A stretch of DNA of 64,000 bases from Candidatus Avimonas merdigallinarum (lineage in GTDB: Bacteria; Bacillota; Clostridia; Oscillospirales; Acutalibacteraceae): the NCBI GenBank assembly GCA_904377855.1, contig CAJFGS010000001.1, forward strand, positions 42,538-106,537. The letters are read 5' to 3'. The translations under genes were made by a program, and so were the position numbers. This document shows positions 60,367 through 64,000 of this stretch, in pieces (the first letter of the stretch is position 1; each line of letters starts with the position of its first letter). The notes below the pieces were generated by a model. The model was not told the DNA's origin and did not search any database. It saw only the letters and a list, made by a program, of their open reading frames with translations.

Positions 60367-61506
60367 ATGTCCGATCCCTTTCAGGAAGTCCAGAAAGCCC
60401 CTACCCTGACGCTGACGCCCAATGAGGACGCCGCCCCCGCCCCTTCCGCAGCGGAAAAGGAGGAAACGCTCGCCCCCCTTGAAGAAACGCAGCTTTCGGC
60501 GGAGGAGCAGAAGATGGTGCAGGAGTTTATTCCTCAGATCGAACTGCGGGACTCCAACCTGGTGCTCCAATACGGTTCCGGCGCCCAGAAGAAAATCGCG
60601 GATTTTTCCCAGAACGTTCTGGAAGGGGTCCGTACCAAGGATTTGGGCGAGGTCGGGGAAATGCTCTCCGGCGTGGTAACCGAACTGAAAAACTTCGATG
60701 TGGAGGAAGAAAAGGGGCTTTTCGGCTTCTTCAAGCGCGGCTCCAACAAACTCAACGCGATGAAGGCCAAATACGCCAAAACGGAAGCGAACATTGATAA
60801 AATCTGCCAGGTGCTGGAGGACCATCAGGTTCAGCTGTTCAAGGACATCTCCCTGCTGGACAAGATGTATGAGCTCAACGCGGTTTACTTTAAGGAGCTC
60901 TGCCTGTATATCATCGCCGGCAAGAAAAAGCTGGAGATGGTGCGCGCCGGCGAACTCGCCGACCTCGTGGAAAAGGCGAAGCAGAGCGGCCTGCCGGAGG
61001 ATGCGCAGGCTGCCAACGATCTCGCCGCCCTGTGCGACCGCTTTGAGAAAAAGGTGCATGACCTGGAGCTCACCCGGATGATTTCCATCCAGATGGCCCC
61101 GCAGATCCGCATGGTGCAGAACAACGACACCATGATGTCGGACAAAATCCAGTCCACCCTGGTCAACACCATCCCCCTTTGGAAAAGCCAGATGGTGCTT
61201 GCCCTCGGGCTGGAAAACTCCCGGCAGGCAGCCGACGCGCAGCGGGCGGTCACCGACATGACCAACGAGCTGCTGCGGAAAAACGCGGACGCCTTGAAGA
61301 TGGCTTCGGTGGACATCGCCCGGGAATCGGAGCGCGGGATTGTGGACATCGAAACCCTGCAGCACACCAACGAGAGCCTGATTTCCACCCTGGACGAGGT
61401 AATCCAGATCCAGGCAGAAGGCCGCCAGAAGCGCCAGGAGGCGGAACAGGAGCTTTCCCGCCTGGAAACCGAACTGAAAAACAAGCTGCTGGACATCCGC
61501 AGATAA
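60367..61506 (+). CDS. telA: Toxic anion resistance protein TelA family
   Basis: 379 aa helical TelA/KlaA fold (SNLVLQYGSGAQKKIADFSQNVL...). Confidence 0.8.
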   Translation: MSDPFQEVQKAPTLTLTPNEDAAPAPSAAEKEETLAPLEETQLSAEEQKMVQEFIPQIELRDSNLVLQYGSGAQKKIADFSQNVLEGVRTKDLGEVGEMLSGVVTELKNFDVEEEKGLFGFFKRGSNKLNAMKAKYAKTEANIDKICQVLEDHQVQLFKDISLLDKMYELNAVYFKELCLYIIAGKKKLEMVRAGELADLVEKAKQSGLPEDAQAANDLAALCDRFEKKVHDLELTRMISIQMAPQIRMVQNNDTMMSDKIQSTLVNTIPLWKSQMVLALGLENSRQAADAQRAVTDMTNELLRKNADALKMASVDIARESERGIVDIETLQHTNESLISTLDEVIQIQAEGRQKRQEAEQELSRLETELKNKLLDIRR

Positions 61507-61518
61507 CCGATTCGAAGC

Positions 61519-61552
61519 GGCGGGATAAACGGGCGTTTATCCCGCCGTTTTC
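61519..61552 (+). terminator. Rho-independent terminator after telA
   Basis: GGCGGGATAAA-cgggcg-TTTATCCCGCC followed by GTTTTCC. Confidence 0.6.
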
Positions 61553-61939
61553 CTGCCCGCCTCCCCTTCCGGCGGCTTGCCGCTCGGGCAAAGCACCGCC
61601 GGGCAGGAGGAAACCCGGCGTGAAAGGCCGCCTCATCCCCATATCGGGAAGCCGGAAAAAGGAACCGATTTGCTTCCGTCCTGGATGGCCCCGGGAATTT
61701 TCTTCGCCTGTGTTGTTATACTATATGGGCAGGAAGTAAGATGTCTCAGCCGCAGGCCGGCGGACAGGTTCACCGCTGTCAAAGCCTCCGGCATCGGTAT
61801 CCGGCGGCGGAGCATGGGAGCGGAAGCGTCCCGGAAGGGGCGCCGATGCCGCCGGCGCTGAAGGATAAACGGTGATTCCCCGGGAAAGCGGCGCGTTTTC
61901 CTTCCTGCGAAACGAATTTCCGGAAAGGATGACGCCAGA

Positions 61940-62902
61940 ATGACAGCCAGCGACAGCCGCAAGGTGGTTTTAATCGGCACCGGCATGGTGGGGATGAGTT
62001 ACGCATACGCCCTGCTGAACCAGAACGCCTGCGACGAGCTTGTATTGATTGACCTCGACGCCGAGCGCGCCATGGGCGAAGCGATGGACCTCAACCACGG
62101 ATTGGCCTTTTCCTCCTCCAGCATGAAGATTTATGCGGGCAAATACGCCGACTGCGCCAGCGCGGATATTGTCGTCATCTGCGCCGGCGTCGCGCAGAAG
62201 CCGGGCGAATCCCGGCTGGATCTGCTGCAGCGCAACGCCGCTGTGTTCCGTTCGATCATCGGCCCAGTGACCGAGTCCGGCTTCAACGGCATCTTCCTGG
62301 TGGCGACCAATCCCGTGGATATCATGGCCCGGATTACCTGCACCCTGTCCGGCTTCAACCCGCGCCGGGTGCTCGGCAGCGGCACTGCGCTGGACACCGC
62401 CCGCCTGCGGTATCTGCTGGGCGATTACTTCTCGGTCGATCCCCGCAACATGCACGCCTACGTCATCGGCGAACATGGCGACAGCGAATTCGTCCCCTGG
62501 TCGCAGGCGATGATGGCCACCAAGCCCATTCTCACCCTTTGCGAGGAAACCGGGATCTGCCAATATGCCGACCTGGAAAACATCGCCGCGGAGGTGCGGG
62601 GAGCCGCCCAGAAAATTATCAAGGCAAAGCGGGCGACCTATTACGGCATCGGGATGGCCCTGGTCCGGATTACCAAAGCGATTTTCGGCAACGAAAACAG
62701 CGTGCTGACCGTTTCGGCGATGCTCCGGGGAGAATATGGAGACAGCGGGGAAAACGGCGTATTTGTCGGCGTCCCCTGCATCGTCAACCGCCGCGGGGTG
62801 CGCAAGGTGCTCACCTTATCCCTCTCCGACGAGGAAGCCCGGCGTTTTCACGCGTCCTGCCAAACCCTGCAGGATTCGTACAAGGAGCTGAACCTGCAAT
62901 AA
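61940..62902 (+). CDS. ldh: L-lactate dehydrogenase
   Basis: VVLIGTGMVGMSYAY NAD fold; catalytic region GEHGDS; 320 aa. Confidence 0.9.
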   Translation: MTASDSRKVVLIGTGMVGMSYAYALLNQNACDELVLIDLDAERAMGEAMDLNHGLAFSSSSMKIYAGKYADCASADIVVICAGVAQKPGESRLDLLQRNAAVFRSIIGPVTESGFNGIFLVATNPVDIMARITCTLSGFNPRRVLGSGTALDTARLRYLLGDYFSVDPRNMHAYVIGEHGDSEFVPWSQAMMATKPILTLCEETGICQYADLENIAAEVRGAAQKIIKAKRATYYGIGMALVRITKAIFGNENSVLTVSAMLRGEYGDSGENGVFVGVPCIVNRRGVRKVLTLSLSDEEARRFHASCQTLQDSYKELNLQ

Positions 62903-62966
62903 AACAATCCCCGGCGCCCGGCGGCCCGTCCCCGCCTTTCCTCTCAGGCCGCAGGACGCCGGGCAT

Positions 62967-63168
62967 CATGAGAGAATATGAGAGAACATGAGAGAACATG
63001 AGAGAACATGAGAGAACATGAGAGAACATGAGAGAACATGAGAGAACATGAGAGAACATGAGAGAACATGAGAGAAAACATGAGAGAACATGAGAGAACA
63101 TGAGAGAACATGAGAGAACATGAGAGAACATGAGAGAACATGAGAGAACATGAGAGAACATGAGAGAA
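62967..63168. repeat. Perfect decamer tandem array (CATGAGAGAA)x20 between ldh and GNAT gene
   Basis: 20 head-to-tail units of 10 bp; unit 2 has C>T; unit 11 is a 12-mer (CATGAGAGAAAA). The array ends 24 nt before the GNAT start codon (63192). Confidence 0.9.
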
Positions 63169-63191
63169 CATGGAAAAAAGGAGGGAATCCC

Positions 63192-63725
63192 ATGCCTTTC
63201 TTGATTCGGGAACTTGAGGAAGACGAAATCCAGCGGCCGCTCTTCCGGCACTTTTCGCGCCGCCAGGTAGTACGGCAATGCCTGCGCAGGCGGGATGGGC
63301 TGTGGACGGCGGAGGAAGCGCCCTTCATAGACGATTGGAACGACGAGAACTACGCCTTTTTAACGGAATGCCTGCGCAATACGGTACATACCGGCGGCGC
63401 GGTGTTTGCCGCATTCCAGGACGGGCAGCTCAAGGGCTTTGCCTCGGTGGAAGCGGCGCTGTTCGGCTCCCGCGGGGAATACATGGACCTCTCCTCCCTG
63501 CACGTGTCGGAGGAACTCCGCGGGCGGGGAGCCGGCCGCCGCCTTTTCCTGAGGGCGGCGGCCTGGGCGAAGGAGCACGGCGCGAAAAAGCTGTACATTT
63601 CCTCCCACCCCGCCGTGGAAACCCAGGCGTTTTATCAGGCCATGGGCTGCGTGGATGCGGCCGAAATCCACGCGGGTCACGCCCAGGAGGAGCCGCTCGA
63701 CCGCCCGTTGGAATACCGCTTATAG
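63192..63725 (+). CDS. GNAT-family N-acetyltransferase
   Basis: Start MPFLIREL after AAAAGGAGGG; acetyl-CoA motif A VSEELRGRGAGRRLF. Confidence 0.8.
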   Translation: MPFLIRELEEDEIQRPLFRHFSRRQVVRQCLRRRDGLWTAEEAPFIDDWNDENYAFLTECLRNTVHTGGAVFAAFQDGQLKGFASVEAALFGSRGEYMDLSSLHVSEELRGRGAGRRLFLRAAAWAKEHGAKKLYISSHPAVETQAFYQAMGCVDAAEIHAGHAQEEPLDRPLEYRL

Positions 63726-63915
63726 GGAGCCTCCCGTTTTTTCTCCCTCTCCGCGCGGCGGGCGGCTTTTTGCTGAGGATCGCCCAGCTGCCATCGCTTC
63801 CCGGCGGCAGGGGAAAGCGGCCTGCATCGAGTGAATTGTCAAACTAAGAGCAACAGGAAAAGAGTTCAAAGTTCCATAAATCCTGAGCGGAATGGAAATT
63901 TAAGACTTTACGAGG

Positions 63916-63946
63916 CCTGGCGTTAATCAACGCCAGGTTTCGTTTT
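63916..63946 (+). terminator. Rho-independent terminator about 190 nt downstream of the GNAT gene
   Basis: CCTGGCGTT-aatc-AACGCCAGG followed by TTTCGTTTT. Confidence 0.6.
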
Positions 63947-64000
63947 AGAGTGGCGGGAGCAACGTGGGAAAGATTTCTACCCTTTGGGTAAAACTCCCGG

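Follow-up and report, generated by a model that had tools for sequence, protein, structure and literature searches.

What does a tract of near-identical ten-nucleotide units do when it lies directly in front of the ribosome-binding site (RBS) of a bacterial enzyme gene? The question is raised by a stretch of 64,000 nucleotides from Candidatus Avimonas merdigallinarum (contig CAJFGS010000001.1, positions 42,538 to 106,537), here called the window, whose own numbering is used for all coordinates. In the window, the spacer between an L-lactate dehydrogenase gene (ldh) and a GNAT-family N-acetyltransferase gene (hereafter GNAT) holds a tandem array of the decamer CATGAGAGAA; all features of the locus lie on the + strand. 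A first-pass annotation of the sequence had proposed a phase-variable locus acting on the acetyltransferase. We find that the array is polymorphic and young, is placed between the two genes, is built of a chain of mini-open reading frames (mini-ORFs) and has no effect on the reading frame of GNAT. We read it as a variable-number tandem repeat (VNTR), generated by slippage in a transcribed ldh-GNAT leader and with at most a graded side-effect on GNAT, and we give this reading a probability of about 0.6.

The decamer array and its assembly

The array occupies positions 62967-63168 (202 bp). Pattern search resolves it into 19 perfect CATGAGAGAA units, one TATGAGAGAA unit and two additional nucleotides, AA, whilst Tandem Repeats Finder (TRF) calls it at 62967-63172 with a period of 10, 20.4 copies, 96% matches and a score of 387. 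The repeat described by the first-pass annotation is therefore present, and its "twenty perfect copies" become 19 plus one variant; the C>T unit that it mentioned is unit 2, TATGAGAGAA at 62977-62986. Allowing up to one mismatch, the decamer is found 22 times in the window, against a mean of 2.49 and a largest value of 8 in 100 dinucleotide-preserving shuffles, and chance is excluded as the source of the array. No other tandem array in the 64-kb window exceeds 3.5 copies (TRF), and about 390 kb of related Clostridia loci contain only two arrays of three or more copies. With head-to-tail units of at least 6 bp and high identity the array has the form of a VNTR. Intergenic VNTRs are a known class, so that "highly unusual" was too strong a description of such a tract in a bacterial intergenic region.

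The array is not in phase throughout. The perfectly periodic run to the left of the AA begins at 62978 and is 99 nt long, and the run to the right, 2 nt out of phase with it, is 96 nt long. In the terminal partial unit, CATGG, TGG takes the place of the recurring TGA. The end of the array lies 19 nt before the GNAT ATG, directly upstream of the RBS; the array does not abut the start codon, as had been stated, since CATGG, AAAAAA, GGAGGG and AATCCC intervene, and the ATG itself is at 63192 instead of 63193.

The first matter to settle is how much of this structure is biological. An exact look-up of the LDH protein led to ENA ERZ1478593 scaffold_176 (106,428 bp; L085), which is 100% identical to the window over 3027 nt to the left and 815 nt to the right of the array and ends at the same base. 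In L085, AATCCCATG follows directly on 11 units; from 63079 on the scaffold diverges from the window, its sequence being shorter by exactly 109 bp. In the region concerned (3028-3150 of L085, equivalent to 63079-63187 of the window) CATGG-AAAAAA-GGAGGG, and hence the RBS, is missing, and the gene caller gave a GNAT of 182 aa (P0125); the junction is probably a mis-join. Contigs from two sibling samples in the same ENA accession series (L088, L090) stop after exactly 99 periodic nt. The series also includes ERZ1478578, with a contig deposited as Candidatus Avimonas caecicola Chicken_7 (idba), which ties it to a chicken-caecum study that assembled 150-bp paired reads with IDBA-UD without the maxk option (PMC7014784). 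From its identity with L085 we infer that the window itself derives from the same study. The default maximum k of IDBA-UD is 100, and the AA phase break sits exactly where k=100 contigs would stop, which is also where L085 diverges. Reads of 150 bp cannot span 202 bp; therefore the joining of contig ends has most likely produced both the 20-unit count and the "12-mer unit", and the AA at 63077-63078 is probably the seam at which a scaffolder abutted two contig ends, not a biological insertion. Both are present as letters, but the 99-nt contig ends and the shorter L085 speak against their biological reality. The true copy number in the sample behind the window is at least 11.

Could the whole array, then, be an artefact of assembly or sequencing, as the first-pass annotation had allowed? 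The exact 20-unit structure with its AA seam does resemble a scaffold join, but we regard this explanation as practically negligible, because the repeat, between the same flanks, has been recovered in no fewer than five independent studies and by four types of assembler (MEGAHIT, SPAdes-type, IDBA, Logan), and because periodic runs of up to 143 nt occur within 141-mers. The array as such is real; its copy number in the window stays doubtful.

Copy number within the species and the age of the array

Alleles were gathered by exact-protein look-ups of GNAT, LDH and GNAT cluster variants, which returned contigs from several studies and assemblers. They show that a single uncultured chicken-gut Clostridia species has alleles of about 2 up to at least 14 units. 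The shortest allele has about 1.7 units (CATGAGAGAA-TATGAGA-AAAAAGGAGG; L094). Two units are found in L092, L093 and four similar contigs, three in L087 and L106, four in L003 (with an internal G>A variant and no T unit) and L105, and five in L001 (the same contig as L086; metagenome-assembled genome GCA_944380655.1) and L007. Further contigs break inside the array, some after at least 9-14 units with periodic runs of 94-143 nt (L002, L004-L006, L085, L088-L091) and two after at least 5-6 units (L008, L107); the longest run, 143 nt in L002, means at least 14 units in that sample. Across alleles the flanks are 95.6-100% identical to the window, mostly 98% or more, and the three-unit allele L087 matches the long-array lineage over 1230 + 407 flanking nt without a mismatch. 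The copy-number variation of slippage type that had been anticipated across strains is thus borne out, on near-identical flanks, and the uniform copy number that had been named as evidence to the contrary is not what the strains carry.

Copy number that differs on conserved flanks is the second hallmark of a VNTR, and here it comes with the caveat that some of the alleles of 3-5 units may have been shortened by short-read collapse. The Logan contigs are informative in this respect. They are built with k=31, and in their 2- and 4-unit alleles the periodic stretch, at 24-25 nt, is below k, so that single k-mers bridge from flank to flank or to an internal variant. The 2- and 4-unit Logan alleles therefore cannot be products of collapse and must exist in the reads.

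The ldh-GNAT synteny is kept in two sister species that have no repeat, and the array is therefore young and species-specific. In Ca. Avimonas caecicola (L019, L099), whose GNAT is 73% identical, ldh is followed by 72 nt with a GC hairpin and then by GNAT; in the species represented by P0003, whose GNAT is 71% identical, the spacer is 641 nt long. This second spacer (L095 860-1500, L097 200-826; 627-641 nt) contains neither a called gene nor a tandem repeat; some of its sequence recurs upstream of GNAT in L020, and the spacer may represent a decayed gene or an element without annotation.

The imperfect duplication (C/T)ATGAGA(G/A)AA of L094 looks like a proto-state of the array, and the T unit at position 2 of most alleles is a remnant of the proto-duplication. 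We propose that the array grew out of a pre-existing imperfect duplication, CATGAGAGAA-TATGAGAAAA, still to be seen in one strain, and that the decamer would then have expanded strongly in one lineage.

Outside the species the repeat is scarce. A 20-mer of two consecutive units had no match in the representative genomes of 185,579 species and none in viral contigs, and in metagenomes it had 10 matches, 8 of which hold only 2-3 units, several being of low complexity or eukaryote-like. The other two (L012, L014) are one independent array, and no family of loci emerged. A literature search for the decamer returned primer sequences only. The independent array (L014 1-130; L012 1-110, minus strand) has at least eight CATGAGAGAA units between different flanks. 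Its contig, of 45-47% GC, has SSB and DUF4326 genes and lacks GNAT and ldh; a phage or mobile element is a possible source. Degenerate, purine-rich copies lie ahead of the array, which ends in CATGAGAAAGTTAAAGCG, a possible ORF start (MRKLKRS), near the end of the contig. It thus resembles the array in the window in its identical unit, tandem arrangement, purine-rich leader-like surroundings and termination at a possible ATG start, but it belongs to an unrelated organism or mobile element; it is probably a convergent expansion of a purine-rich motif resembling an RBS and start.

The array as a probable part of the GNAT leader

In agreement with the first-pass annotation, a crude consensus scan found no sigma-70-like promoter on the + strand between ldh and GNAT. 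The interval from array to RBS is too short to house a promoter, and so is the spacer of Ca. Avimonas caecicola, with its hairpin and RBS about 10 nt apart. With no recognisable promoter and no room for one before the RBS, the array would be transcribed as part of the GNAT leader. We infer that GNAT is most likely expressed from an ldh-GNAT read-through mRNA, an option that had been raised earlier and is favoured by the adjacency of the two genes in two sister species, one of which has the spacer of only 72 nt.

Between ldh and the first unit of the array, and adjoining the latter, lies an inverted repeat (62907-62966) with 20-nt arms that are 85% complementary and a 20-nt pyrimidine-rich, anti-Shine-Dalgarno-like loop, CCUUUCCUCUCA. 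Its RNA fold has an energy of -31 kcal/mol (z -2.6), and it is followed by CAUCAUGAGAG and not by a U-run, which is in keeping with a leader transcribed from ldh onwards. The hairpin is found in every allele that shows the left flank, and Ca. Avimonas caecicola has a hairpin at the equivalent position. It is likely to be a weak terminator or an mRNA-stabilising hairpin at the ldh 3' end; a relation to repetitive extragenic palindromes was dropped, as the hairpin is unique in the window. The array RNA, in turn, is unpaired in the centroid fold, and the minimum-energy fold adds only 4-bp CAUG:CAUG contacts. Rfam searches at E up to 1 gave only two sub-threshold hits, both on the minus strand and elsewhere than in the array.

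The reading frames of the array answer the question of phase variation in its simplest form. Most of its + strand ATGs open a 7-codon ORF, MREHERT, that ends in TGA; the first ATG gives MREYERT instead, and at the AA seam two ATGs open ORFs of 11 codons. The TGA of each mini-ORF overlaps the ATG two units downstream (AUGA), and within the array a TGA recurs every 30 nt in each of the three + frames, with 6-7 stops per frame. Only one array ATG reads into GNAT, namely the third from last at 63150 (-42 relative to the GNAT start), which gives a 191-aa form; the ATGs at -32 and -22 open ORFs of 14 and 15 codons that overlap the GNAT start. Wherever an allele has the CATGG end and two or more units, the ATG that corresponds to 63150 lies at -42. 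It is probably not the native start of GNAT; gene callers and homologues use the 177-aa form. The 3' end of the array is fixed, and gain or loss of units takes place upstream of it; a change in copy number therefore does not move the ATGs at -42, -32 and -22 relative to GNAT, and this, together with the stops in all + frames, excludes a frame-shifting ON/OFF switch. The earlier idea that the embedded ATGs are in frame with GNAT only at particular copy numbers does not hold, and the locus does not belong to the class of contingency loci that act by ORF frameshift. On the minus strand, ORFs of 75-155 aa with MFSHVLSCSL repeats run through the array. They arise automatically, because TTCTCTCATG has no stop codon, and they overlap the ends of ldh and GNAT; we reject them as genes.

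What copy number could still change is the leader. In the VNTR reading, the array belongs to an untranslated leader and is flanked by the hairpin at the ldh 3' end and the RBS of GNAT; its copy number would alter the length of that leader (from about 20 to more than 140 nt) and the number of upstream AUGs, each of them preceded by a weak purine-rich Shine-Dalgarno-like GAGAG and opening the 7-codon MREHERT ORF, whilst the reading frame, the RBS and the GNAT start would stay as they are. The RBS is indeed kept, as GGAGGG or GGAGGA, in every allele that shows the segment, except at the L085 join. The only plausible effect would be a graded one on GNAT translation or mRNA stability, a rheostat instead of an ON/OFF switch, in which longer arrays would lower GNAT expression through diverted ribosomes and a longer unstructured leader. 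That a longer array means less GNAT output is a guess by analogy with Haemophilus influenzae hmw1A/hmw2A, where an (ATCTTTC)n repeat is transcribed as part of the promoter/5'-untranslated region (5'-UTR) and more repeats give less expression (PMC12721329, PMC8262952). That the array is an adaptive device is no more likely than that it is a mutational by-product with few consequences.

The hmw 7-bp repeat is the closest analogue of the array that we found. In both cases a near-perfect tandem unit of 7-10 bp, in double-digit copies, lies upstream of a coding sequence and in the leader (here probably), slippage changes the copy number, and the frame is not affected, so that any effect is graded. 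The differences are considerable. At hmw, base pairing between the repeat RNA and a G-rich segment gives a long hairpin that is cut by RNase III, and natural alleles have at least 11 repeats (PMC12721329). Our array, in contrast, is purine-rich, has no complementary partner and is predicted to be unstructured, and we therefore do not count it amongst 5'-UTR hairpin elements of the hmw type; alleles of 2-5 units are common, and the gene encodes a cytoplasmic GNAT and not an adhesin.

Several observations weigh against the VNTR reading in the form given here. The evidence consists of assembled contigs. The 3-, 4- and 5-unit alleles from MEGAHIT or SPAdes-type assemblies have runs of 23, 33 and 43 nt, which are the shortest phase-consistent ones for k=21, ~33 and ~39, and some partial collapse by the assembler stays conceivable for them. 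The short alleles of 2-5 units are common and have the same RBS, which makes the long array dispensable. Amongst the alleles recovered, long arrays occur only in one near-clonal lineage, which fits slow drift at the level of lineages as well as it fits rapid switching. GNAT is a cytoplasmic enzyme, not one of the surface or restriction-modification genes usual at contingency loci. Finally, the consensus scan found no sigma-70-like site on the + strand anywhere in 61400-64000, a crude result, since the scan also missed the promoter of ldh.

A true contingency locus, in which frequent and reversible slippage switches or tunes GNAT and selection keeps the tract, is unlikely. Its tract would be placed as such loci require, where unit number can affect a neighbouring gene, and the purity of at least 14 identical units, the difference between 3 units (L087) and at least 10-14 on mismatch-free flanks and the hmw precedent all speak for it; moreover, several k141 contigs reach no further than 94-124 periodic nt into the array, perhaps because mixed lengths made the assembly graph branch. 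But a frame-based ON/OFF switch is impossible here, short alleles are widespread, the gene class is atypical and the 64-kb window has no comparable tract elsewhere. The absence of the tract from the sister species also counts against a maintained regulatory device. The length differences between samples are compatible with high-frequency, reversible change within a population, without proving it.

The chain of mini-ORFs invites explanations at the level of RNA. A translational rheostat tunable by copy number, in which AUGA-overlapping mini-ORFs or a purine-rich protein-binding track occupy the intercistronic leader and slippage would reset the number of ribosomes that reach the GNAT start, is suggested by the sequence, and we consider it rather improbable. 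Still less probable is an RNA-level device in the stricter sense, a ribosome landing or relay track, or a multivalent site for an RNA-binding protein such as Hfq, that feeds or titrates GNAT translation. Hfq of Gram-positive bacteria binds AG repeats. Every unit carries GAGAG-AAC-AUG, each UGA overlaps the AUG two units downstream, the last member of the chain, at 63150, reads into GNAT, the array is unstructured, and the independent decamer array of the unrelated contig likewise ends at a possible ORF start. Set against this, the idea is purely sequence-derived; a mere 3 nt separate the weak Shine-Dalgarno-like element from the AUG, GNAT possesses a strong GGAGGG of its own with no significant sequestering hairpin (z 0.3), peptide and array are missing from the sister species, and the GAG spacing of 0, +2 and +10 is unlike that of TRAP-type sites, in which triplets recur every 5-6 nt.

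Related candidates were set aside. A TRAP-like site of GAG triplets does not fit the spacing just given. A Shine-Dalgarno-sequestering hairpin opened by upstream translation was dropped, the local fold being no better than shuffles. Leader-peptide attenuation or a regulatory upstream ORF is likewise not indicated: there are no alternative structures, the mini-ORF is missing from the sister species and there is no Rfam match.

The 10-bp period, close to a helical turn, had suggested phased curvature on one face of the DNA. In a wedge model the predicted bend is about 13.5 degrees per 10 bp, against a window background of 7.2 +/- 1.5 and about 24 for a phased A6 control, and the curvature of the array is above that of all 300 background 200-mers of the window (maximum 13.1). 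The twist of the unit sums to 336.6 degrees, so that successive bends rotate by about 23 degrees per unit, out of plane and without adding up on one face; the case for phased curvature is weak. An element acting at the DNA level, as curved DNA or as a periodic protein-binding array that controls a GNAT promoter or ldh termination, could appeal to the period and to the modelled curvature, but it is very improbable: no promoter-like hexamers are seen in or beside the array and no promoter would fit before the RBS, A-tracts of four or more are absent except for the AAAA made at the AA seam, the bends leave one face with about half the curvature of the A-tract control, gene and RBS are intact in strains with 2 units, the adjacent genes include no regulator, and the CATG palindromes are not conspicuous in the window (212 observed, 216 expected, ratio 0.98).

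Known DNA-level elements fit no better. The unit has only AA and bends about half as much as the control, unlike intrinsically curved DNA with phased A-tracts. A restriction-modification or methylation role for the CATG palindromes was dropped, CATG being neither avoided nor enriched. Iterons and other replication-origin repeats have units of about 17-22 bp beside a rep gene or origin, whereas here a 10-bp unit lies between chromosomal ldh and GNAT and some strains have only two.

The locus amongst known repeat systems

The features of the locus are collected in Table 1.

Table 1. Features of the ldh-GNAT locus in window coordinates
Feature	Position	Strand	Basis
L-lactate dehydrogenase gene (ldh), 320 aa	61940..62902	+	ORF; Pfam Ldh_1_N E=3.5e-46, Ldh_1_C E=1e-39
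GC-rich imperfect inverted repeat after ldh	62907..62966	+	repeat finding, RNA fold
Decamer array, left block: 11 units	62967..63076	+	pattern search
AA phase break ("12-mer unit" of the first-pass annotation)	63077..63078	+	between units 11 and 12
Decamer array, right block: 9 perfect units (63079-63168) and partial unit CATGG (63169-63173)	63079..63173	+	pattern search
In-array ATG reading into GNAT, 14 codons upstream (MREHERTWKKGGNP-)	63150..63191	+	ORF 63150..63725; ATG enumeration
A-run (63174-63179), Shine-Dalgarno GGAGGG (63180-63185), 6-nt spacer AATCCC	63174..63191	+	read from sequence
GNAT-family N-acetyltransferase gene, 177 aa	63192..63725	+	Pfam Acetyltransf_1 E=3.6e-13

The ldh gene is the upstream member of a conserved ldh-GNAT pair; further neighbours are a TelA-family gene and a Halogen_Hydrol-family gene, and no regulator gene adjoins. 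GNAT has 486 homologues, the nearest outside its own species being 73% identical, and no NCBIfam model at cutoff names its subfamily. One homologue, 59% identical, is annotated as a hypothetical protein (P0029) on a 9.76-Mb contig of the gut protist Tritrichomonas musculus, and reflects either horizontal transfer from gut Clostridia or contamination.

Other observations concern the surroundings of the gene pair. Between the TelA-family gene and ldh there is a leader of about 430 nt (61507-61939) in which Rfam gives nothing above threshold and the consensus scan calls no promoter; an extended -10 resembling TGnTATACT is seen near 61715-61723, upstream of ldh. A non-coding stretch of about 180 nt 3' of GNAT ends in the hairpin cctggcgttaatcaacgccagg followed by tttcgtttt (about 63909-63940); it has no Rfam hit, resembles an intrinsic terminator and might mark the end of a small RNA. 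Position 64000 of the window is the end of the source contig. Contigs of two samples from another accession series (L002, L004) extend 42 nt past it and both end at the same base, which suggests that a repeated element begins there.

Beyond hmw, two groups of known repeats are comparable. Bacterial VNTR loci are used for typing by multiple-locus VNTR analysis (MLVA) in Bacillus anthracis and Yersinia pestis and, as mycobacterial interspersed repetitive units (MIRU), in mycobacteria. Such loci share with the array a unit of more than 6 bp, conserved flanks, copy differences from strain to strain and often an intergenic position without a known function; we see no difference of substance. Only in its purity, in having at least 14 units and in lying immediately ahead of an RBS is the array unusual. 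The second group comprises the TAAA repeat of Neisseria nadA and the AGAT repeat of Moraxella uspA2, upstream or 5'-UTR repeats of phase-variable loci. The likeness is that the repeats lie outside the ORF, and at nadA and uspA2 unit number modulates expression without a frameshift. Those, however, are tetranucleotide tracts at surface-protein genes of pathogens with measured effects on expression, whereas the locus in the window has a 10-bp unit and belongs to an enzyme gene of a gut commensal.

As it stands, the locus is an ordinary polymorphic intergenic tandem repeat of a known kind. It is a strain marker for this chicken-gut species, and also a warning case: short-read assemblies break the repeat, shorten it or, in one scaffold, drop the RBS, and these differences turn the same DNA into different "genes" of 177, 182 or 191 aa. 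Should the translational rheostat prove true, it would be an RNA-level locus of contingency type in an uncultured member of the Clostridia, working without a hairpin partner and therefore mechanistically distinct from hmw. If copy number does tune GNAT, the locus would be amongst the few repeat-based contingency-type loci outside the classical pathogens, and what it controls, in an uncultured gut Clostridia lineage, would be a metabolic enzyme and not a surface antigen.

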